Shown: positions 81 through 64,000 of the stretch, one piece after another | How positions within the stretch are numbered: position 1 is the first letter of the stretch | How the letters are laid out: every line of letters starts with the position of its first letter | Assembly (NCBI GenBank): GCA_041497135.1 | Contig: JBGQFX010000014.1 | Coordinates: 62 to 64,061 of the forward strand | Direction of reading: 5' to 3' | Length of the DNA: 64,000 nucleotides | Source: Gemmatimonadota bacterium | GTDB lineage: Bacteria; Gemmatimonadota; Gemmatimonadetes; Gemmatimonadales; GWC2-71-9 | Position numbers and translations under genes: made by a program | The notes under the pieces: model-generated | What the model was told of the DNA's origin: nothing | The model's input: the letters and a program-made list of their open reading frames with translations, nothing else | Databases searched by the model: none

Positions 81-96
81 TAGTTGGAACGGCACT
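81..96. repeat. terminal-repeat copy TAGTTGGAACGGCACT (3' end type)
   Basis: 16 nt identical to 49221-49236. The upstream GGCGGCAG resembles the sub-terminal GGCGCACG of the 83-bp element. It overlaps the first base of the haloperoxidase-like gene's stop codon. Confidence 0.7.
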
Positions 97-1523
97 CATC
101 GAGCCGGCATCGCCCGGGTGTGGAGCCGCTCCAGCACCATCCGGCCGACACAGCGCCCGAGCGCCTTGCCGTTCTCGTTCCCCATGGGGAAATGGATGCC
201 GCCGTACAGGCGGGACTGGGCGGCCTCATCGGCCGCTTCCTGGAACGACCCGAACCGGCGGACGGGGTGCCCGAACGCCAGGTTGGTGCTGTCCTCGAAG
301 GCCACTGGCCCGAGTAGCGCGGTGAGCACCGTGGCGGCCGCGGCGGACTGGCCCGAGTGGCCCGCCGGATACTCCGGGAACGGCGGGGTGACGATCGCGG
401 GCGTCCAGGTTGGATCGATGTAGCGCCGGATGTAGGTTACCGGCCGGATCGAGCTCAACCGGTACTTCTCGTGCCAGATCGCGATGAAGGCGTCGGCCTG
501 GGCGAGCGTCACGAGCACGAACGTCTCGGCGGCCTGGTCCGCGGAGAGCCGGCGCTGGGTCACGAGCTGGCTCCCGATGGCCAGCCAGTGGCCCACCGGT
601 GTGCCGGTCTGCCCAGGGTTGTCCGCCCAGTAAAGCACGGTTTGGCGCTGCTCCTCGGTCAGGGCGCGACCCACGTCGTACACCCGCTTCGCCTCGGCGT
701 AGAACGCTGACCCCGGGGACGTAGACCAGGGGGCTGGGGGTGGCGTCGGGCACTCGTCCGCGGACCGGAGTGCGAAGGGGCGCAGCGTGCCCCACCACGG
801 CTCCGTGGCCCCGGTGGGGTTGACCGCCTTCAGGGTGCGGGTATCCGCGGGCTTGGGACGGGTGAGCGCCAGGGCCCGCTCGCTAGCCTCGCCGCCCCGG
901 AGCGTCGCCGCGGGGTTGCCGAGCGCCACGTAGTCACGGACCGCGGAGAGGTTTTGGGCCGTGTATTCGTTCACCCGGGAGTCGTTGATCCAAAACTGAG
1001 GCCCAGCGGGGGGGTGAAAGGGTTTCGTGCGGGTCTCGTTGAAGCCGTCACGAGCGGCCCAGGCCAGGATGGCGGTCCCGATGCGCTTGCCCAGGTCCCG
1101 TGAGTCGGCCGGCACCGCGTCGGGGATCCCGCTGGCGAGGCGAGCGGCCTCCAGGGAATCCGACAGAGCGGCCAGTGCGGCTCGTGTGGCCGGCAGTCCC
1201 TCGACGAAGACAGAGTCAAGCACGGCGCGCTCAGCGGCCAGGGCTACGAGGATCGGATCGTAGCGCTTGTCCGGGTCCGGGCGGGGAAGCGAATCGAGCC
1301 CGTTCAGCTGGCCGGCGAGCGAAACGAGTTTCGGCGATCCGATGGCCAGGCCCTCATAGAGTCCAACGGCCGCGTAGGCAAGGACGCGCGAGGCCACCGG
1401 GGGAGAAATCCGCTCGGCGCGAATGAGGCCGTAGTAGTTCCGCATCCACTCCGCCACGAACTGCGGATCGGCTGGGGGGATGGGTCGCGCGCAGGCGGCC
1501 GAAGCGAGGAGCGCCGCGGCCAT
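96..1523 (-). CDS. PAP2-superfamily / vanadium-haloperoxidase-like protein, probably exported
   Basis: 475-aa ORF with ATG at 1523. N-terminal MAAALLASAACA looks like a signal/lipobox. C-terminal PEYPAGHSG ... SRLYGGIHF motifs resemble the PAP2/haloperoxidase active site. Antisense ORFs are Arg/Pro-rich shadows. Confidence 0.6.
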   Translation of the reverse strand: MAAALLASAACARPIPPADPQFVAEWMRNYYGLIRAERISPPVASRVLAYAAVGLYEGLAIGSPKLVSLAGQLNGLDSLPRPDPDKRYDPILVALAAERAVLDSVFVEGLPATRAALAALSDSLEAARLASGIPDAVPADSRDLGKRIGTAILAWAARDGFNETRTKPFHPPAGPQFWINDSRVNEYTAQNLSAVRDYVALGNPAATLRGGEASERALALTRPKPADTRTLKAVNPTGATEPWWGTLRPFALRSADECPTPPPAPWSTSPGSAFYAEAKRVYDVGRALTEEQRQTVLYWADNPGQTGTPVGHWLAIGSQLVTQRRLSADQAAETFVLVTLAQADAFIAIWHEKYRLSSIRPVTYIRRYIDPTWTPAIVTPPFPEYPAGHSGQSAAAATVLTALLGPVAFEDSTNLAFGHPVRRFGSFQEAADEAAQSRLYGGIHFPMGNENGKALGRCVGRMVLERLHTRAMPAR

Positions 1524-8400: not shown

Positions 8401-11400
8401 CTAAACCGCCTTCACGAGATGAACGCTGTCGGCACCCAGGATGCCGCGCAACGCGCCCAGCAGCTCATCGTCCGGGTCCACGCGCAGGCTCCGGCTCACC
8501 AGTCGCGCCGCGCCGCCGCCATTGGACCCCTCACCTTCCCACTCAACCAGTACCGGCGCCGGGCCGGGGTGCGCCGCACACAGGGCGGCGGCGGCCCGGG
8601 CCGCATCAGCCTCGGGCGGCGTGGCCGCGTGCCAGCGCAGCGCGAGGCCGATCTGGCCACTCGCTTTCAGCTCGTCGAGCGGTCGGGCCGCCTCCACGAT
8701 GAACGGCGCCTGCTCCTCGCCCCGGTCCCGCTGGCTGTAGCTCCCGGTGAGCAGCAGGGCGCAATCGGGCGCGATCACCGTGTTGAGACGCGACCACGCA
8801 TCCGGAAACACGAGCGCCTCCGCCGTGCCGTGGAAATCCTCGAGCACGAGGCGCGCGTACTCGGCGCCGGATTTCTTCGAAACCTGCCGCTTCACGATCG
8901 ACATCACCGCGGCGATCGTCACCTTCTGGTCGCTCCACGCGCCCAGGGTCGCCGTGGTCCGGGTCCCGAAAAGCTCCACCTCCGCGCGATACTTGGCGAG
9001 GGGGTGCCCGGAAATGAAGAAGCCGAGCACGGCTTTCTCCCGCACCAGGCGGTCGTGCTCGGGCCACGGCGGCACTTCGGGCAGCGGCGCGGTCGGCCGG
9101 GCGACGGGCGCCGTCTCACCGAACAGCGCGTGCTGGCCGACCTGGCGCTCCTGCTGGCGGACCTGGGCTTCCCCGAACGCGTGCTCGAGGGCGGCGACGA
9201 GCTGCGCGCGGTGGCCGCCGAGCGAGTCACAGGCACCGGCGTCGATGAGCGCCTCCAGGACGCGCTTGTTGCACAGCCGGAGATCGATGCGGTCGCACAG
9301 CTCGACCAGCGATCGATAGGGGCTCGCCTCGCGGCCGGCGATGATCGAGGCGATCGCGCCGTGGCCGACGTTTTTCACGGCGCCCAGGCCGAAGCGGATA
9401 CGCGTGTCGCCCACGACCGTGAACTTGAAGCGCGACTCGTTGACGTCGGGCGGGAGGACCTCGAGCCCGAGCTCCCGTGCCTCGTTGATGTACTCGACGA
9501 CGTTGTCGGTGTTGCCGATCTCGCTCGACAGCAGCGCGGCGAGGAATTCCGCGGGATAATACGCCTTGAGCCAGGCGGTCTGATAGGACAGCAGCGAATA
9601 CGCGACCGCGTGGGACTTGTTGAACCCGTAGCGGCCGAACGTCTCGATCTGGGCGGCGATGTCCTCCACCACGCGCCGGTCGTGCCCGCGCCCCACCGCG
9701 CGCTCGACGAACCGCGCCAGCTCTTCCTGGATCAGCTCCTTGATCTTCTTGCCCACCGCCTTGCGCAGCACGTCGGCTTCGGCGAGCGAGTAGCCCCCCA
9801 GGATGTTGGCGATGCGCATCACCTGCTCCTGATAGGTGATGACGCCGTACGTGGGCTGCAACACCTCCTGCAGCGCCGGGTGCGGATAGCGAACCGGATC
9901 GCGGCCCAGTTTCCGGTTGATGAACACGAGATGCATGCCCGTGTCGAGCGGGCCGGGCCGGAGCAAGGCATTGGCGGCGACCAGATCGTCGAAGCGGTCG
10001 CATTTCATCTGGCGCAGGCAGTCCGTGGCCAACGGCGACTCGAACTGGAACACCCCTGCCGTGCGGCCGCTGCGCAGCTGCTCGTAGACCGTGGGATCCG
10101 CAAGGTCCAGCTGGTCCATATCGAGTGTGACGCCGTGCCGCTCCTGGACCATGGCCACGGTGTCGTGGATGACCGTGAGCGTCCGCAGGCCCAGCAGGTC
10201 GATCTTCAACATGCCGACCTTTTCGAGCGCCACCATGTCGTACTGCGTGATGATCGCGTCGTCGTCCTGGGGAGAGAGGCACACCGGGACATAGTCCGAG
10301 AGCGGGCCCGGCGCGATCACCACCCCCGCCGCGTGCACCGAGGCGTGGCGGGCCAGGCCCTCGATCCGGCTCCCTAGGTCCAGCACTTTGCGCACCCGCT
10401 CGTCCTGCTCAGCGAGGCTCTTCAGCTCGGGGACCTTGGTCGCCGCTTCCGCGAGGGTGAGCGAGAACCCGGGGCCCGCGGGGATGAACTTCGTGGCGCG
10501 GTCCACTTCGCCGATCTCGAGGCGCAGCGTCCGGGCTACGTCGCGGAACGCCGCGCGTGCCTTCATGGTCCCGAAGGTGATGATCTGACCCACCGACTCC
10601 CGGCCGTAGCGCGCGCGCACGTACTCGATCACCTCGCCGCGGCGCTCGAAGCAGAAGTCGAGGTCGATGTCCGGCATCGAGATCCGTTCGGGATTCAGGA
10701 ACCGCTCGAACAGCAGATCGAAGCGCAGCGGGTCGACGTTGGTGATGTGCAACGCATACGCCACCAGCGAGCCGGCCGCCGAGCCGCGCCCCGGGCCCAC
10801 CGGGATGCCGCGGTCGCGCGCCGCCTTGACCAGGTCATAAACGATCAGGAAGTAGCCGGCGTAGCCGGTGCGCTGGATGACATCCAGCTCGTAGTCGACC
10901 CGCTCGGCCACGGGGGCCGGCAGCGGATCGCCGTAGCGCTCACGGGCGCCCTGCCGCGCCAGGTGCACCAGCAGGTCGTTGTCGCTCGCGAACTCCGGCG
11001 GGCGCGGGTACTGCGGCAGAAAGTAGCGCTTTTCGAAGTCGAACTCGCACAGGTTCGCGACCCGCGCGGTCTCGGCCAGCACGTCCGGGCGGCCCGGGAA
11101 GAGCGGTTTCATCTCCTTCTCGGACTTGACGTAGCTCTCCTGCCCGAAAAACCGGAACCGTTTTGGATCATCGAGATCCTTGCCGGTGCCGATCGCGAGC
11201 AGGACGTCGTGTGCCTCGGCGTCTTCCTTCATGAGGTAGTGGGCGTCGTTCGTCGCCAGCACCGGGATCCCGAGCTCCTGCGACAGGCGGAACATGCCCT
11301 CGGTGACGAGTTTCTCTTCTTCCATTCCGTGGTTCTGGACCTCGAGCCAGAAGCCCTCCGGTCCGAACACCCCGGCGAAGTACTGGGCGCTGGCCTTGGC

Positions 11401-46233: not shown

Positions 46234-47245
<1,012 letters not shown>

Positions 47246-47249
<4 letters not shown>

Positions 47250-48187
47250 GGCTCGAAAAGATAGTCGGCGCGGGGATCGAGAGCGTCCCGCGCGGCGTCA
47301 CCGATCGCGTTCAGCGCCATGACGGTGATCGCGATCGCGAGACCCGGGAACAGCGACGTCCAGAGCGCCGTGGTGAGCTGATCGCGGCCGTCGGCGATCA
47401 TGTTTCCCCAGCTCGGCATCGGTGGCTGGACGCCGACCCCCAGGAAGGACAACCCGGCCTCGAGCAGCATCATGTGGCCGATGCCCAGGGCGGCGGAGAC
47501 GATCAACGGCGCGGCCGCGTTGGGCAGCACGTGACGGATGATGATCCGCCAGGGACGCGCGCCGGCGGTGCGCGCGGCGTCGGTGAACGGGCGTTCACGC
47601 AACGACAGCACCTCAGCGCGTACGAGCCGGCTCGTGGCGAACCACCCCGTGAAACCGAGCAACAGGATCAGGGGACCGGTGCCCAGCCGATCCCACAGAG
47701 CGATGGCGAGCAGCACCAGGAAGATGCGCGGCACCGAGAGCCCCACGTCCACGAGTCGCATCAGCACGGCGTCGGTCCAGCCGCGAAAGTAGCCCGCCAC
47801 CGTGCCCACGAGTCCACCCAGCATGACGGCCACCGCCATGCCGAGCGTGCCGATGCCGAGCGACACCTGCGCGCCGTACAGGAGGCGGCTCCACACGTCC
47901 CGGCTGTAGAGATCGGTGCCGAGCGGATGCAGCCAGCTCGGGGGTCGGTTCTGCAGCGCCACGATGTCGAGCTGCTGGGACGGCCGGTATGGCGCGAGCA
48001 GCGGCGCGCACACGGCCACCGTCGCGAAGAACACCAGCACCGCGATCCCGGCGGTCGCCGTCGGATGCCGGAAGAACCGTCGCCAGGCCTCGCCGTGCGG
48101 GCCGCGCGCGGCGCGCCGGCTCCAGGCGACGGCCACGGCCGTCCACAGGAGGGTGGCGAGCAGTCCGAGCCAGGAAGCGACGGTCAC
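47246..48187 (-). CDS. ABC transporter permease (OppC/DppC-like)
   Basis: The GTG start overlaps the upstream TGA. N-terminal OppC-type region and the EAA-loop region [16 protein letters not shown]. Confidence 0.85.
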
Positions 48188-49155
48188 GTGACCATTCGCA
48201 CTCTCGGGTCTGCGAGCACGGCCAACAGATCGGCCAGCAGACTTCCCATGACGACCGCGACACTGGCGAGCAGAGTGGTGGCGAGCACCAGCGGATAGTC
48301 GCGCGCCGCGATGGCATCGGCGGCGAGTTTGCCGAGCCCGGGCCAGGCGAACACCGCCTCGACGAGCACCGCGCCGGTGAGCAGGAACGGCAGCGCGAGC
48401 CCCAGCAGGGTGATCACGGGGAGCAGGGCATCGCGCAGCGCGTGGCGCACCAGCACCGCGGACTCCCGCAGTCCTTTGGCACGGGCGGTGCGCACGTAGT
48501 CCTGACCCAGCGCTTCGAGCAGGGCGGCGCGCTGGAACCGAGCGGTCCCGGCGGCGCCCACGAGACCCATCGTGAGGGCCGGTAATGCGAGGTGGCGCAG
48601 GCGATCGAGCACCTTCCCCCACAGGGGGAGGTTGGGGTACAGCACGGGGTCCGTGACGCCGCCGACCGGGAACCAGTGCAGCCACTGACCGAACACGAGC
48701 AGCAGCACGAGGCCGAGCCAGAAGATCGGAAGGGAATACAGGAAGAGGGTGGCGTTGGTGAGCGCCACGTCCGAGCTCCGCCGTGCGCGGGCAGCCTGGA
48801 ACACGCCGATGGCGATGCCCAGGAGGAAGTCGATCAGCAGCGCCGCGCCCGCGAGCACCGCCGTGTTGGGCAATGCGGTTGCGATCGCCTCGGCGACGGG
48901 GCGGCGCTGGCTGAAGGATTCCCCCAGGTGCCCCCGGGCCAGCGCGCCGAGGTACCGGACGTATTGCTCCGGCAGCGGCCGGCCGAGCCCGAACTCGTCA
49001 CGCAGGCGCGCCACGGCGGCCGGGTTGATGGGCCGCCCCTGCTCGGGCAGGAACGGCGTGCCAGGGGCCAGGTGAATGGCGACGAAGGAGAAGGAAACGA
49101 CGGCGAAGACGATGGCGAGGGCGGCGCCGAGCCGCCGCAGCAGCCAGGCCGTCAC
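48184..49155 (-). CDS. ABC transporter permease (OppB/DppB-like)
   Basis: 323 aa with GTG start at 49155. LLRRLGAALAIVFAVVSFSF opening and YVRTARAKGL EAA motif. Confidence 0.9.
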   Translation of the reverse strand: MTAWLLRRLGAALAIVFAVVSFSFVAIHLAPGTPFLPEQGRPINPAAVARLRDEFGLGRPLPEQYVRYLGALARGHLGESFSQRRPVAEAIATALPNTAVLAGAALLIDFLLGIAIGVFQAARARRSSDVALTNATLFLYSLPIFWLGLVLLLVFGQWLHWFPVGGVTDPVLYPNLPLWGKVLDRLRHLALPALTMGLVGAAGTARFQRAALLEALGQDYVRTARAKGLRESAVLVRHALRDALLPVITLLGLALPFLLTGAVLVEAVFAWPGLGKLAADAIAARDYPLVLATTLLASVAVVMGSLLADLLAVLADPRVRMVT

Positions 49156-49238
49156 CTAGTGCCGTTCCAACTCGTGCGCCGAAGTACCAGAGCCCATTTC
49201 GGGACTCTTCTCGGCGTGAATAGTTGGAACGGCACTAG
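49156..49238. mobile_element. 83-bp MITE-like element with perfect 17-bp terminal inverted repeats
   Basis: CTAGTGCCGTTCCAACT (49156-49172) and its exact reverse complement (49222-49238). The arms continue as an imperfect inverted repeat. Flanks read C-TA-[element]-TA-G. The same terminal sequence recurs at 81-96 and 63849-63865. Confidence 0.7.
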
Positions 49239-50905
49239 TGCCCGACGCGGTCACGCTCGTTGAGCCGGTCGGGAGGGATGCGCCAGTTCCGGACCAGGGC
49301 CATCCAGGAATCCGGCCGGAGCTGGACATCGGTGACTCGGCTGTCGACCGCCGCCACGTTATCGAGAGCATAGAGCATGATCGCGGGCGCATCCTGCGCG
49401 AGTGTCGTGAACGCGGCGACCCACGCCGCACGAGCGGCGCTCAGCGTCTGGGCGTTGGCGGCCGTGGCCACGGCTCGATCGAAGGCAGGGTTGGCGTAGC
49501 CGCCGTAGTTCGCCCCGCCACCTTTGCTCCAGATCTGGGGGACCCCTGAGGTGGGCGTGGGATCGGTCTGCCACGATTCCAGCGCCGCGTCGAATGTGCC
49601 GGCGCTCAACCGCTCGGCCATAGCGGGGTCGTCCATCTCGTCGATGACCAGCTCGACACCCACGGCGCGCAGTTGCTCCTGCAGCAGACGGGCGTATTGC
49701 CGTCGCAAGGGGCTGGTGGGGACCGCGACATGGAAACTCAATCGGCGGCCGGCGCGGTCGCGGATCCCGTCCCTGTTCGAGTCGCGCCAGCCGCGGGCGG
49801 TCAACAGTCCCGCGGCCTGGGTCGTGTCGTACGGTGGTGGCGCGAGCTCGGGAACCCACAGCCAGCTCCACTGCTGCGGCATCGGTCCCGGCGGCACCTT
49901 GGCGTGTCCCGCCGTAGCGCTCTGCAGCATGCGTTCCCGGTCGGTGGCCATGACCAGCGCGCGCCGCACGGCGGCGTCGGCGAACAGCGGGTTTGGGCGC
50001 AGCGAATCGCCGTTGGCCCGCAGATTGAACCGCAGGAAGGTGTACGTCACGCCTGGATAGGGGTACAGCTTCAGGTGCGCTGCGGCCTGAGCGCGGCCGA
50101 TGTTGGCCGGGCCCACCAGCACTTCGATCGCATCCGCCTCGCCCGCGACGAGCTGGGTTATGGCGACGTTCACGTCCGATGCGAAGCGCCAGATGAGGCG
50201 CTGCAGATGTGGCCGCCCCAGATAGAAGGTGGAATCCGCCGTGAGCTCCACGGACTCTCCCGGAGTCCATCGCAAAAAACGATACGGCCCGTCGCCGATC
50301 GGCGCCCGTCCGAACGCGGCGGTTCGCCACTCGCCGCGCGGCACGTCGCGCAAGAGATGCGCCGGCAGGATGCGCAGGTGGAACGTCGCGTCGAAAAACG
50401 CCTCGGGGTAGCTGTGGCGGAACTTGAATACGGCCGTGAGGGAATCCGTGGCCGTGACCGAGGCGATATGCGCCAGCGCCGTCAGATCTCCCGCTGCGAC
50501 GGCGGTATCGGTATAGGACTCGAACGTGAATTGCACGTCGGCGGCGGTGACCGGGGGGCCATCCTGCCAGTGCGCGCGGGGGTCGAGGTGGAACGTGAGG
50601 GTCAACGGGTCGTTCCACTCCCACGACCGGGCCAGCTGCGGCACAAACCCGGAATCGCCGATGGTACTGCCGCCCACCGTGAAGTCCGCCAGCCGCAGGA
50701 AGATCTGGTCGAAGATGTCGCGCTCCACCGCGGCTTCGCTCAGCGGGGGGAGGAGCGTCGTGGCGCTTCGGGTGGCCGCGATGACCAGTGAGCCGCAGTA
50801 CTCGTCGCGGCAGCTGCCGCGCCGGCTACAGGCCGCCGCCGTCAGCAGGGCAAGGGCAAGGACGGCCGGGGTACGTGGGAGGTGGATCATGCCCAAAGAT
50901 TCCAT
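49235..50905 (-). CDS. ABC transporter substrate-binding protein, family 5 (OppA/DppA-like), lipoprotein
   Basis: Start at ATG 50905 or 50890. Signal plus lipobox LALLTAAAC. SBP_bac_5-type body (WQDGPPVTAADV, DPYRFLRW.). The stop TAG lies inside the repeat element. Confidence 0.85.
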   Translation of the reverse strand: MESLGMIHLPRTPAVLALALLTAAACSRRGSCRDEYCGSLVIAATRSATTLLPPLSEAAVERDIFDQIFLRLADFTVGGSTIGDSGFVPQLARSWEWNDPLTLTFHLDPRAHWQDGPPVTAADVQFTFESYTDTAVAAGDLTALAHIASVTATDSLTAVFKFRHSYPEAFFDATFHLRILPAHLLRDVPRGEWRTAAFGRAPIGDGPYRFLRWTPGESVELTADSTFYLGRPHLQRLIWRFASDVNVAITQLVAGEADAIEVLVGPANIGRAQAAAHLKLYPYPGVTYTFLRFNLRANGDSLRPNPLFADAAVRRALVMATDRERMLQSATAGHAKVPPGPMPQQWSWLWVPELAPPPYDTTQAAGLLTARGWRDSNRDGIRDRAGRRLSFHVAVPTSPLRRQYARLLQEQLRAVGVELVIDEMDDPAMAERLSAGTFDAALESWQTDPTPTSGVPQIWSKGGGANYGGYANPAFDRAVATAANAQTLSAARAAWVAAFTTLAQDAPAIMLYALDNVAAVDSRVTDVQLRPDSWMALVRNWRIPPDRLNERDRVGH

Positions 50906-50912
50906 GAGGCTT

Positions 50913-51650
50913 CTACCGGCGCCAGGTCCAGGTCGGGTCGATGAAGGCTGATAGCCGGACGGCCGGATGGGCGGATGGGACGAGTGGACCGTCCCACGCT
51001 GCCGCGATGGCCGACGCGACCTCATCGAAGCCGACGGGGCGACCCAAGATGGCAGCGAGGGTCGTGCCGGACCCATTCGGCGAGGGTCGACGACTGACGG
51101 TTTCGACTGTCTGTTGGGACCCGTCGAGCAGTATCGACCCATGTTGCAGAAACGCGGTGCCGCGTCGCACTTGTGCCGAGCCGATGACTTTCTTCCCATC
51201 GACCAAAACCTCGCCGCCGACCGGCGATGCGAAGCAGGCCCCATCGCCGAGACCTGCCCCAGCGGCGTACCTGGGCGCGAGCATAGCGTGGATGCCGAGG
51301 CGGCCCAACGCTCGCGCGAGCCGCTCGTGGATCGTGTGATAGCTCTCGCGCAATGATCCGAACGCCGCGATCGGGGCGGCGACGGCGTAGGTCAGCTCGT
51401 GCTCGTGCCAGACGGCCCGTCCACCGGTTGGGCGGCGCACTACATCGAGGCCGAGCCGCTCGATGCGGCCGCGATCGTAGCGCGCGAGCGCCGGCTCGTT
51501 GCGGCCGAACGAGAGGCAGGGCGGGGCGAAGCGGTACAACCGAAGGAACGCGGCGCCCGATCGGTCGGCCGCGACGAGCAACGACTCGTCGATCGCCATG
51601 TTCCGGGCGCCCGGGCGGCCCGCGGGATCGAGAATCAGGTGCCAGTCCAT
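50913..51650 (-). CDS. lipoate-protein ligase / octanoyltransferase family protein (BPL_LplA_LipB catalytic domain only)
   Basis: Start at MDWHLIL (51650). NMAIDESLL, RRPTGGRAVWH, and GKKVIGSAQVRR with the catalytic Lys. No LplA C-terminal accessory domain. Confidence 0.8.
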   Translation of the reverse strand: MDWHLILDPAGRPGARNMAIDESLLVAADRSGAAFLRLYRFAPPCLSFGRNEPALARYDRGRIERLGLDVVRRPTGGRAVWHEHELTYAVAAPIAAFGSLRESYHTIHERLARALGRLGIHAMLAPRYAAGAGLGDGACFASPVGGEVLVDGKKVIGSAQVRRGTAFLQHGSILLDGSQQTVETVSRRPSPNGSGTTLAAILGRPVGFDEVASAIAAAWDGPLVPSAHPAVRLSAFIDPTWTWRR

Positions 51651-62021: not shown

Positions 62022-63268
62022 AGCTTCCCCGGCCGCTGGCTCAGCACCTCGATGCCGTTGTCGGTGACGAGATTGTCGTCCTCGATCCGTACGCCGAACT
62101 TCTCGGGTTGGTAGATCCCCGGCTCGATCGTGAACACCATTCCCGGCTCGAGCGGCGTGTCGTTGCCTTCCACCATGTAGGGCGGCTCGTGGCCGTCCAT
62201 GCCCATGCCGTGCCCCAGGCGGTGGGTGAAGTACTGCCCGTAGCCGCCGTCGGTGATCACTTTGCGTGCCGCGCGGTCCATCTCCTGGCAGCGCACCGTG
62301 AACGGTTTGCCCAGGTTCATCGCCGCGGTTTGGGCGTCGTGCACGAGGTTGAACACCTTCTTGAACTCGTCGGAGGGCGCATCACCGTACCAGATGGTGC
62401 GCGTGATGTCGGAGGTATAGCCCGCGACTTCGCAGCCGCAGTCGATCAGGACCACCATCTCCCTGGCGAGCTGTCCACCGCCCGGTCCGCCGTGCGGCAA
62501 GGCGCTCGACGGGCCGAATTGCACCAGGCCGCCGCCCGGAGCCCCGCGCGTGCGCATCTCCTCGGACAATTTGCCGGCCACGTCGCGCTCGGTGACGCCC
62601 GGGACCAGTCCGGCGAACGTCGCCGCAATGGACGCCTCCGTAATGGCGACGGCCCGGCGGATGAGCGCGACCTCTTCCGGATACTTGATCATGCGCAGCC
62701 GCTCGGTGACGGGGGCGCCCGTCTGCCAGCGCCAGGCGCTGCCGCCGGCATCGCTCATGCGCAGGAACGACGCGTAATCGAGCGTGGCTTCGATCGCTCC
62801 CTGACCGGGACGGCCCTGCGGCTTGGCCGCCCGGAGCGCTGTTTTCACGAGCTTCCAGGGATCGTCCTGCTCCTCCCAGCCCCGCACGTCGCGCACGGCG
62901 CTGCGCCGCTTCACGCGCTCGACCTCGAAGGAGGGGCAGATGATGGCGGGATCGCCCTTGGTGGGTACGAGCAGCAGGATCAGGCGCTCGCTGCGCCCAG
63001 GATTGGTTCCCGTGAAGTACTCGAAGTTCGTAGCCGGAGCCGCGGCGAACAGGTCGAGCTTGCGCCTGGCGAGCTCGGTGCGCAGCCGGTCGAGCCGTTG
63101 CGCGAACACTTCCGGGCCCAGGGTGGGCTCCTGGGAGGCGTTGGATGGAGGGAAGGTTGGAAGCTTGGAATGTTCCCCCTTCCAACTTTCCAACATTCCA
63201 ACGTTCTGACCGATCGCCCCACCGAACAATCCTGCCCCCACGACCCCCACAAACTCCCGCCGCTCCAT
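62018..63268 (-). CDS. M24 family Xaa-Pro aminopeptidase/dipeptidase, possibly Tat-exported
   Basis: Creatinase-like N-domain plus pita-bread domain (VLIDCGCEVAGYTSDITRT, HRLGHGMGMDGHE, EPG.Y, IRIEDD). MERREFVGVVGAGLF resembles a twin-arginine signal. Alternative start at ATG 63195. Confidence 0.85.
   Translation of the reverse strand: MERREFVGVVGAGLFGGAIGQNVGMLESWKGEHSKLPTFPPSNASQEPTLGPEVFAQRLDRLRTELARRKLDLFAAAPATNFEYFTGTNPGRSERLILLLVPTKGDPAIICPSFEVERVKRRSAVRDVRGWEEQDDPWKLVKTALRAAKPQGRPGQGAIEATLDYASFLRMSDAGGSAWRWQTGAPVTERLRMIKYPEEVALIRRAVAITEASIAATFAGLVPGVTERDVAGKLSEEMRTRGAPGGGLVQFGPSSALPHGGPGGGQLAREMVVLIDCGCEVAGYTSDITRTIWYGDAPSDEFKKVFNLVHDAQTAAMNLGKPFTVRCQEMDRAARKVITDGGYGQYFTHRLGHGMGMDGHEPPYMVEGNDTPLEPGMVFTIEPGIYQPEKFGVRIEDDNLVTDNGIEVLSQRPGKL
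63150..63205. repeat. imperfect palindrome built from TTGGAA / TTCCAA octamer units
   Basis: GGAAGGTTGGAAGCTTGGAATGTTCC | CCCTTCCAACTTTCCAACATTCCAACGTTC, with three units per arm and about 18 of 22 core positions complementary. Confidence 0.7.
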
Positions 63269-63336: not shown

Positions 63337-63852
63337 ATGCACTACGAAGCCAAGATCGAGCCTCTCGACGGCAAGCTCCCCAAGGTGAGCTACCGCTGGG
63401 ATCCCGAGACCGACATCCTCTCCGCCGTCTGCAAGGGCGCCCCGAAGACCACGGGGATGGACGGCACCGTGGATCTTGAGGGCAGTGACGGATCCTTTGT
63501 CCTGCTCGACGTTGCCGGCGGCACCCTGAGGGGCCTCGATGTGGTCACGTGGCCCGACGATATCCGCACGGTGGATGCGCTCGCGGTCCCGGCGACCTCG
63601 AAAGCGGCCCGCGTGCTGTTTCCATCGCGCCGCTCGCAGCCCGCGGTGGCGGCGGTGGAAGTGGAGACGGCGCTGACGGTAGAAAAGAACGCCGCGGAAT
63701 CGGTGTTCCATATCCGGGTCGGCCGGACACGACCGGTGGACGTGGTCCGCATTGCCGACAGCCTGCTGGTGGAATTGGACAAGCAGTCCCGCCTCGCCGG
63801 GCTGTGGCTCCTGGAAGTGCCGCCGTTCCCGAACGTCGAGGGGAACGCCTAG
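63337..63852 (+). CDS. hypothetical protein
   Basis: 171 aa from MHYEAKIEPLDGKL, with protein-like composition. The stop TAG lies within the CTAG of the terminal repeat at 63849. Confidence 0.5.
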   Translation: MHYEAKIEPLDGKLPKVSYRWDPETDILSAVCKGAPKTTGMDGTVDLEGSDGSFVLLDVAGGTLRGLDVVTWPDDIRTVDALAVPATSKAARVLFPSRRSQPAVAAVEVETALTVEKNAAESVFHIRVGRTRPVDVVRIADSLLVELDKQSRLAGLWLLEVPPFPNVEGNA

Positions 63853-63865
63853 TGCCGTTCCAACT
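63849..63865. repeat. terminal-repeat copy CTAGTGCCGTTCCAACT (5' end type) preceding the GIY-YIG gene
   Basis: Together with the following 11 nt, it forms 28 consecutive nt (CTAGTGCCGTTCCAACTATTCACGCCGA) identical to the reverse complement of 49211-49238. Confidence 0.8.
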
Positions 63866-63889
63866 ATTCACGCCGAAGAGAGCCCCGGT

Positions 63890-64000
63890 ATGGATTACAC
63901 CTACGTCCTACTCAGCGAACGAGACGGGCGGTTCTACACGGGTTCGACCGGCGATCTGCGAACGCGGTTCCGAGACCACAACGTTGGCCGCGTCCACTCC
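63890..64000 (+). CDS. GIY-YIG nuclease family protein (UPF0213-like), 5' partial at window end
   Basis: MDYTYVLLSERDGRFYTGSTGDLRTRFRDHNVGRVHS fits the GIY-YIG opening (YvYiL...dgr.YiG.T.dL..R...HN.G). Truncated by the window. Confidence 0.8.
   Translation, partial: MDYTYVLLSERDGRFYTGSTGDLRTRFRDHNVGRVHS

Follow-up and report, generated by a model that had tools for sequence, protein, structure and literature searches.

Comparative sequence analysis of a 64,000-nt stretch of DNA from a Gemmatimonadota bacterium (referred to below, at its full length, as the window) shows that an insertion element of 315 bp lies partly in its last 152 positions, 63849-64000, which hold the left end of the element and codons 1-37 of its only gene. 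This gene encodes a nuclease of the GIY-YIG family. The same comparisons show a transposition-like process to insert this unit, as well as an 83-bp deletion derivative located elsewhere in the window, at the tetranucleotide CTAG with duplication of these 4 bp. That the nuclease recognises the paired ends of the element and initiates its movement is the reading that we favour, and we consider it probable. The features at the end of the window are as follows.

63337..63852, plus strand: host gene, 171 amino acids (aa), without Pfam family; its stop codon is the insertion target
63849..63852, plus strand: left copy of the 4-bp target-site duplication (CTAG), present as a single CTAG at empty orthologous sites
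63853..63865, plus strand: left terminal inverted repeat TGCCGTTCCAACT, which bounds about 44 GIY-YIG units elsewhere too
63866..63889, plus strand: 24-nt purine-rich leader from the left end to the ATG (GAAGAGAG), common to the 83-bp element
63890..64000, plus strand: GIY-YIG nuclease open reading frame (ORF), codons 1-37 of 93, cut by the end of the window

Structure of the gene-bearing unit

An exact 28-mer, CTAGTGCCGTTCCAACTATTCACGCCGA, is present in two copies in the window, at 63849-63876 (plus strand) and at 49211-49238 (minus strand), and was not matched in any of 100 dinucleotide shuffles. These two copies are exactly those expected from an earlier reading of the window by its letters alone (the sequence-only reading), which had noted a 28-nt identity with the reverse complement of one end of the 83-bp element. 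The same reading had placed the repeat 24 nt upstream of the ATG of a GIY-YIG gene and had seen the likeness continue to an ATGG in both copies. Both points are borne out, as the 17-nt repeat occupies 63849-63865 with the ATG at 63890, and the alignment of the gene-bearing unit with the 83-bp element extends beyond the 28-mer to the common ATGG. The stop codon TAG of the upstream host gene also lies inside CTAG in both cases, as had been stated, at 63850-63852 for the 171-aa gene and at 49235-49237 (minus strand) for the gene upstream of the 83-bp element.

The window was extended by JGI contig Ga0534155_0000901 (L003), which differs from it at 2 of 10,664 overlapping bases; contig JBGOWA010000011.1 (GCA_041478375.1), which includes the window, ends within the GIY-YIG ORF. 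On L003 the ORF is complete (10554-10835, 93 codons) and ends in AAC ACG TTG GAA CGG CAC TAG (...GTTGGAACGGCA followed by CTAG; ...cacGTTGGAACGGCACTAG). An inverted end downstream of the ORF, past the window, had been anticipated in the sequence-only reading and was found on this contig. It corresponds to the inverted left end with 1 mismatch in 15, and it coincides with the final five codons of the ORF (TTG GAA CGG CA/C, the slash separating element and duplication). In window numbering, the right end and the stop are expected from L003 at about 64155-64171. The next gene on L003, for an O-methyltransferase (PF01596), has a GTG start that overlaps the TAG of the ORF.

The unit is 315 bp long, with 13-bp ends (TGCCGTTCCAACT...AGTTGGAACGGCA) and a flanking 4-bp direct repeat of CTAG. 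Of the unit of about 0.4 kb that had been predicted earlier, composed of terminal inverted repeat, leader, gene, tail and second terminal inverted repeat, the repeats, the leader and the gene were recovered; the size is 0.32 kb, and there is no tail. The ORF has no stop codon of its own, its last codon consisting of CA plus C, with TAG supplied by the right copy of the duplication. The leader is too short for a promoter, so that the ORF is presumably expressed by read-through from the host operon.

Target-site duplication and empty sites

Relatives of the GIY-YIG gene were taken from GTDB species-representative genomes, and the loci of the best 80 of 153 were fetched. The same 4 nt, mostly CTAG, flank the left and the right end in 40 of 46 end pairs. 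CTAG is palindromic, so that direct and inverted repeats of it are indistinguishable; among the non-CTAG flanks of the 46 end pairs, there are 8 direct matches (6 of them independent, namely TTAG, CCAG, CTAA, CGTA, CTTG and CTGG) and no inverted ones. These non-palindromic variants identify the 4-bp flanking repeat as a true duplication of the target site. Besides CTAG, no motif is common to the 43 distinct insertion sites.

The test for empty sites was based on 80 metagenomic loci encoding orthologues of the 171-aa protein (71-89% amino acid identity). The GIY-YIG unit is absent from all 80, and a single CTAG is located in the TAGTG stop/start overlap. In these relatives it is the GTG start of the O-methyltransferase gene that the 171-aa gene overlaps, and the methyltransferase gene lies immediately downstream in most of the 80 loci. 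The closest empty site (L086) reads GAGGGAAACGCCTAGTGGTGGAGC, versus gaggggaacgcCTAG-(315 bp)-CTAGtgttggagc in the window; over a longer section, the same comparison gives ...GGGAAACGCCTAGTGGTGGAGC... versus ...ggggaacgcCTAG-(315 bp)-CTAGtgttggagc.... The 83-bp element is likewise absent in 4 of 4 orthologous loci (permease 85-92% identical), which read ...gtcgggcaCTAG/GTGACGGCC, the slash marking the insertion point. At this site ...gggcaCTAG/GTGACGG in the empty state corresponds to ...GTCGGGCA CTAG-(75 bp)-CTAG GTGACGGCC in the window. These empty orthologous sites indicate that both window insertions are precise and recent, each of them on the stop codon of an operon junction, and the presence/absence polymorphism that the sequence-only reading had held to be worth looking for is evident for the unit and its derivative alike. 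A chance arrangement and an assembly artefact were rejected on the basis of these empty sites and of the flanks.

In 30 of the 46 units, the stop codon in the left copy of the duplication closes an ORF on the same strand that is 80 codons or longer; in the two control frames this is so in 5 and 11. In this GC-rich genome CTAG is about 8-fold under-represented: base composition predicts 188 occurrences in the window, where 24 are seen, and three of these 24 belong to the duplications at the present elements. A specificity for the tetranucleotide, combined with selection, can by itself account for the placement on stop codons. The left copy of the duplication retains the host stop, and the right copy gives the element ORF its stop and restores the start context of the next gene. 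With the host stop kept and the next start context rebuilt in this way, the element is silent inside an operon. Such insertion on the stop and start codons of operon junctions, with signals rebuilt from the duplication, represents an unusual accommodation to the host.

An integron-type gene cassette, moved by an integron integrase, would also be a promoter-less single ORF, and the ends agree by our reading with the attC core at 6 of 7 bases each (TTCCAAC with RYYYAAC, and GTTGGAA with GTTRRRY). However, the ORF is located inside the inverted repeat, not next to an attC hairpin; the insertions are simple ones with a 4-bp duplication in ordinary operons; and no cassette array or intI gene was found nearby. 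This makes a cassette a most improbable explanation.

Other repeats were seen around the 171-aa gene. An 8-nt TTCCAACA-type repeat is present in 3.4 copies at 63180-63206, after its complement (ggttggaag, cttggaatg), in the region 63150-63210; here the M24 peptidase gene and the 171-aa gene diverge from a common intergenic region. In metagenomic loci L128, L140, L143, L144, L146-148, L158, L163 and L164, tandem repeats of GGAGGTTGG(T/G)G are located just after the 171-aa gene.

Gene-less derivatives

The following features concern copies of the ends that do not carry the nuclease gene, and the genes next to them.

49156..49238, minus strand: 83-bp non-autonomous derivative, a miniature inverted-repeat transposable element (MITE), consisting of CTAG, 75 bp and CTAG
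49235..51244, minus strand: gene for the substrate-binding protein of an ABC transporter, with its stop TAG (49235-49237) inside the duplicated CTAG
48184..49155, minus strand: ABC-transporter permease gene; its GTG start (49153-49155) comes directly after the element
82..98, plus strand: third copy of an end, AGTTGGAACGGCA (82-94), then CTCA (95-98); absent from the sequence-only reading

The 83-bp element is a near-perfect palindrome. As single-stranded DNA (ssDNA), one of its strands folds at -29.8 kcal/mol (z = -7.7) and the other at -30.3 kcal/mol (z = -7.1). About 55 nt of it match the 5' part of the unit and about 35 nt match the 3' part (ggtaYttcggGC..ACgttggaacggcactag). By this alignment the element is a derivative of the GIY-YIG unit that retains the 5' and 3' parts and has lost the interior, in agreement with the internal deletion proposed in the sequence-only reading. 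As befits a MITE, it encodes no enzyme, has the ends and the duplication of its parent, and is homologous to it in the subterminal sequence. Its ATG, previously described as opening a 13-codon remnant that runs into the other inverted end, does open MGSGTSAHELERH followed by a stop, i.e. 13 codons in frame that end at the duplicated TAG before the permease GTG. Translational coupling across the 83-bp insertion may persist by way of this mini-ORF, which is less clean in the MITE-like copies at L029 and L036. As to the neighbouring genes, the true start of the substrate-binding-protein gene is probably downstream of the listed one, and SBP_bac_5 orthologues in relatives end immediately before the permease.

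Further gene-less end pairs were found at loci L029 (1704-1791) and L036 (1732-1810). Complete MITE-like pairs number 3 in about 0.5 Mb, and there are 2-3 copies of the repeat in the 64-kb window. At the third copy, a 475-aa gene (minus strand, 96-1523) has its TGA stop within the CTCA at 95-98. The first five bases of the window (CCAAC) may be the last bases of a left end; the window edge would then truncate a second MITE, about 103 bp long and different in its interior. One-mismatch 'solo' ends, seen in the loci and at window positions 46631 and 43258, were rejected as chance matches in coding sequence. At L024 (2911-2965), a full unit has directly next to it a truncated one (CTAG TGC, deletion, ...AGTTGGAACGGCA CTAG), and the two share one CTAG; this could represent an insertion into an existing copy of the duplication, or a tandem arrangement with a deletion.

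The GIY-YIG protein

The 93-aa nuclease is a single-domain protein, in which PF01541 (GIY-YIG) covers residues 3-71 (E = 1.2e-12) and no other domain is present. Y5, R26 and E62 do not vary among homologues, and conservation of Y16 is 90% or higher. The spacing of Y5, Y16 and E62 is that of Y6, Y17 and E64 in SsnA within 1-2 residues, although it is also that of UPF0213 proteins and is hence non-discriminating. The ORF is under purifying selection (median dN/dS of 0.18 in 59 pairs). Its terminal codons are TTG in 37 of 38 ORFs, GAA in 38 of 38 and CGG in 37 of 38, versus 29%, 50% and 28%, respectively, where these amino acids are encoded at other positions of the ORF. This bias suggests that the right end is constrained as DNA and not just as protein. 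At the protein level, the C-terminus ...KLERH is kept in about 100 of 120 homologues.

The AlphaFold2 model has a beta-beta-alpha-beta-alpha core followed by one C-terminal helix, and finds its best fold matches in UPF0213 and in Slx1, a branched-DNA nuclease. The match of the family profile to UPF0213 structures is weak and partial (E = 5e-7), which argues that the family is not UPF0213/cd10456. At E <= 1e-3 the wider family comprises 12,081 cluster representatives, and at E <= 1e-10 it comprises 2,343. No family matching the nuclease was found in NCBIfam, Rfam gave no match in the whole window at gathering thresholds, and a tblastn search of a plasmid collection gave one weak unrelated match.

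The GIY-YIG fold is the classical one of homing endonucleases, with I-TevI as a weak structural match of the model. A free-standing homing endonuclease gene would cut one long target and be copied by homologous repair. The 43 distinct sites, however, share only CTAG, copies are present at non-homologous loci, the 93-aa protein is without a DNA-binding domain, and inverted ends and a duplication are present. Homing is accordingly a highly implausible account of the unit.

Closer in kind are the Ssn proteins described by Chenal et al. in 2025 (PMC11893778), single-domain GIY-YIG proteins of 94 aa assigned to cd10448, among them SsnA from Neisseria meningitidis. They bind ssDNA and cut only ssDNA, a few nt 5' of a cognate hairpin repeat called NTS or SRM (PMC11893778).

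Relatives, dispersed copies and end types

Most of the best 80 relatives have inverted ends at the borders of the ORF, in units of 265-335 bp. In about 44 of the 80 (clade a), TGCCGTTCCAACT precedes the ATG by 20-40 nt and AGTTGGAACGGCA closes the ORF; these belong to Acidobacteriota, Gemmatimonadota, Nitrospirota, Methylomirabilota, Verrucomicrobiota, a 'Deltaproteobacteria' metagenome-assembled genome (MAG) and candidate phyla. Essentially all close relatives have the same ends, so the association that the sequence-only reading had wished to see at other GIY-YIG genes is general among them. Four end types follow the protein clades (a to d), and two of these are found at the following loci.

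L044, L049, L050, L055, L069, L071, L072, L075, L079: clade b, units of 265-306 bp, mostly 265-270
L057, L065, L066, L070, L076, L083: clade c (Bacteroidota, Cloacimonadota), ends CCCnGTGAAATAA...TTATTTCACnGGG

Units of clade b (Planctomycetota, Omnitrophota and others) have the ends TCCCGTTAGACC...GGTCTAACGGGA, with direct duplications TGAA, TGAG or TGGA, and an ORF of 90-91 codons that covers the whole unit. The start codon ATG of this ORF is composed of an A of the host flank and the TG of the left duplication, and its stop TGA is that of the right duplication, whose TG also joins the last A of the right end to form a new start codon for the downstream host ORF, which is 114-998 codons long in the 10 clade-b loci with an intact unit-spanning ORF. 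The clade-b element thus appears to capture the start codon and ribosome-binding site of the host and then to rebuild both. In clade d (Desulfobacterota, Pseudomonadota), tandem arrays of fused left and right ends, forming hairpins of about 48 bp, are located beside the gene. One such array, of GCCCGCCCGCCTCGCCTGAGCGAGC-GTA-GGCTCGCGATGGCGGGCAGG units, is located upstream of the GIY-YIG gene at about 2350-2500 in L052, and likewise upstream of the gene in L074; it resembles NTS/BIME arrays.

Near-identical copies are dispersed within genomes. On two contigs of one MAG (L056 and L060), units of the same sequence (100% identity over 309 bp) lie between unrelated flanks, and another MAG carries four copies that are 89-94% identical. 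The unit that encodes protein P0026 (L258-L267) was considered as a burst of identical copies; this was rejected, as it occupies the same single locus in many samples (about 18 contigs), between genes for a 2-hydroxyacid dehydrogenase and a T2SSE ATPase, and represents one fixed insertion in a widespread lineage. Inverted ends with a duplication, precise empty sites and near-identical dispersed copies, the features by which insertion sequences are recognised, are all found here.

Alternatively, the nuclease could serve the host in a system of the Ssn/NTS type that cuts incoming or recombining ssDNA at repeats, the features of insertion being relics of an element that this protein no longer moves. 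SsnA modulates natural transformation via NTS repeats, and domestication was proposed by its authors (PMC11893778). The fixed P0026 insertion and the purifying selection on the ORF would suit such a role. Nevertheless, both window insertions are missing in all close relatives examined, fully identical copies are found at unrelated loci of one MAG, and the few copies of the repeat counted above compare with hundreds in Neisseria. Host function and selfish mobility can also coexist. As an alternative to mobility, a host-serving system is in our view distinctly unlikely.

The nuclease as the proposed mobility enzyme

There is no space for a second gene in 315 bp, and the sole ORF of the unit encodes a GIY-YIG protein and none of the recognised transposase classes (DDE, DEDD, HUH, serine, tyrosine). 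In the mechanism that we propose, the nuclease would recognise both ends when these are paired, as ssDNA or as a cruciform, into a stem whose base is the boundary of the element. It would cut at the base of this stem, as the related SsnA cuts a few nt 5' of its hairpin repeat. The cut would start excision or copying, followed by insertion at CTAG sites, with joining and gap repair left to the enzyme itself or, as seems more likely, to functions of the host. As it retains the stem, the 83-bp derivative would be moved in trans.

A number of points weigh against this mechanism. The role of the nuclease as mobility enzyme is one that we infer from sequence comparisons. GIY-YIG enzymes are hydrolytic, and we know of no strand-transfer activity among them. 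A 4-bp duplication at CTAG or YTAR is typical of DDE transposases of the IS5 type (ISfinder families), and the ends of clade a begin with TG and finish with CA, like many DDE substrates. SsnA cuts only ssDNA, whereas a 4-bp duplication normally implies a staggered double-strand cut of the target. The ends lie partly inside the ORF, so that end type and clade would co-vary for any linked cargo. The placement of the protein next to Ssn rests on the published description of the latter, and the published SRM motif is absent here: its consensus HGTCWYN(0-2)YYVSBRHN(0-5)WNVSBRGN(0-2)RNCYNB has no match within 500 bp of the 80 genes and 2 matches in 433 kb, while an NTS control does match. In clade c, no duplication was found in the register tried (left YTTG/CCTG, right TAAA), and the boundary or the mechanism may be different in this clade. 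Finally, the fixed P0026 unit indicates that some insertions are old.

Some of these points would fit another explanation, in which the ends derive from IS5- or IS701-like DDE transposons, the unit and the 83-bp element are both non-autonomous and mobilised in trans, and the nuclease is a passenger that benefits the host or the element. Duplication of 4 bp at CTAG with YTAR-like variants suits IS5-type behaviour; the TG and CA termini of clade a, and the absence of known strand transfer by GIY-YIG enzymes, agree with this as well. However, neither a longer element nor a transposase gene bounded by these ends turned up in the window, the 80 GIY-YIG loci, the 80 orthologous loci and viral contigs (about 0.9 Mb of related sequence, which is not genome-wide), and end pairs more than 600 bp apart are all chance matches. 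The subterminal sequence of the 83-bp element comes from the GIY-YIG unit. At least four protein clades have each their own end sequence exactly at the ORF borders, and clade b has a non-palindromic target, TGAA; with ends and targets specific to clades, mobilisation in trans would need a co-diverging transposase for each clade. The stop codon of the ORF, and in clade b the start codon too, is supplied by the duplication, as in a gene adapted to the mechanism of insertion. We therefore regard passive cargo as unlikely, if still to be taken seriously.

In the scan of viral contigs for TAGTGCCGTTCCAAC, 89 single matches were obtained, which by our estimate is roughly the chance expectation for a 15-mer. 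The sole widely spaced pair inspected, on viral contig L168, lies in phage structural genes.

Returning to the nuclease as initiator of movement, it is tempting to go further and to propose that the 93-aa GIY-YIG protein itself mobilises the element. The units of 265-320 bp would then be the smallest autonomous DNA transposons known and would define a new class of transposition enzyme, and the NTS/SRM hairpins of Neisseria, Wolbachia and Rickettsia, along with other REP-like repeats, would be the MITEs of such elements. We advance this wider claim tentatively, as a serious possibility that falls somewhat short of being the expected outcome.

Short palindromic repeats are abundant in bacterial genomes, and their origin and spread are mostly unexplained. 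The Ssn work of 2025 tied one such repeat to a tiny GIY-YIG nuclease and left open whether the unit is or was mobile. What is new here are classical signatures of transposition for a nuclease-plus-repeat unit, namely duplication, empty sites, identical copies and a deletion derivative. Should the nuclease prove to be what drives the movement, a new class of enzyme for DNA transposition would be at hand, the lower size limit for autonomous elements would be about 0.3 kb, and the multiplication of hairpin repeats of the NTS/SRM type would be explained. The enzymes may also be useful as sequence-specific ssDNA tools or as structure-specific tools.

Comparison with known systems

Among insertion sequences, the IS5 and IS701 families resemble the unit in their terminal inverted repeats, in the 4-bp duplication at CTAG/YTAR-like targets and in their gene-less deletion derivatives. 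They differ in having a DDE transposase, which is absent here, and 315 bp is about a quarter of the IS5-type size. REPtrons (RAYT with REP/BIME) share with the unit a small gene between inverted hairpin repeats that are also scattered, and an enzyme proposed to recognise ssDNA hairpins. Unlike the hydrolytic GIY-YIG protein, however, REPtrons and IS200/IS605 elements use an HUH Y1 tyrosine transposase with a covalent intermediate. IS200/IS605 elements have subterminal hairpins and neither terminal inverted repeats nor a duplication, both of which are present here, and RAYTs are usually single-copy, in contrast to the several gene-bearing copies per genome seen here.

GIY-YIG nucleases are also part of selfish elements in I-TevI, the Seg proteins and Penelope-like retroelements. 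These differ by extra DNA-binding or reverse-transcriptase domains, by a long homing site or target-primed reverse transcription, and by having neither inverted ends nor insertion at a tetranucleotide. The Tsy transposon encodes a GIY-YIG nuclease whose removal impairs transposition (Faure et al. 2023, PMC10293859). That element has several genes and targets comM, and its nuclease assists two tyrosine recombinases without being essential, whereas here the nuclease is the sole protein. Literature searches aimed at bacterial transposons, MITEs or target duplications with a GIY-YIG nuclease led, within the library used, to the work of Chenal et al. and to the accessory nuclease of Tsy, and to no other paper on a bacterial GIY-YIG element having inverted ends and a duplication.

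The closest likeness is to Ssn. Both systems consist of a single-domain GIY-YIG protein (93 aa here, 94 aa in Ssn) whose gene is flanked on both sides by a cognate inverted repeat, with gene-less copies elsewhere (here at window positions 49156-49238 and 82-94 and at L029 and L036), and in both the cognate sequences differ between protein lineages; clade d, with its arrays of fused ends, is also NTS-like in arrangement. In 42% of cases the Ssn gene has the repeat on each side, and the authors state that this layout 'is identical to' that of insertion sequences and draw an analogy with RAYT/REP (PMC11893778). Target duplications, empty sites and mobility are unreported in that paper, in which the word 'duplication' occurs 0 times (PMC11893778). 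The sequence-only reading had regarded the element as a class not described before. This holds in part: the layout of gene plus repeat is that of Chenal et al., and mobility has not been reported for Ssn. The present unit differs from Ssn in that its ends are the halves of one inverted repeat and not two full hairpins, in that its right end lies within the ORF, and in the signs of movement that it displays, in the form of a 4-bp duplication, empty sites and identical dispersed copies.

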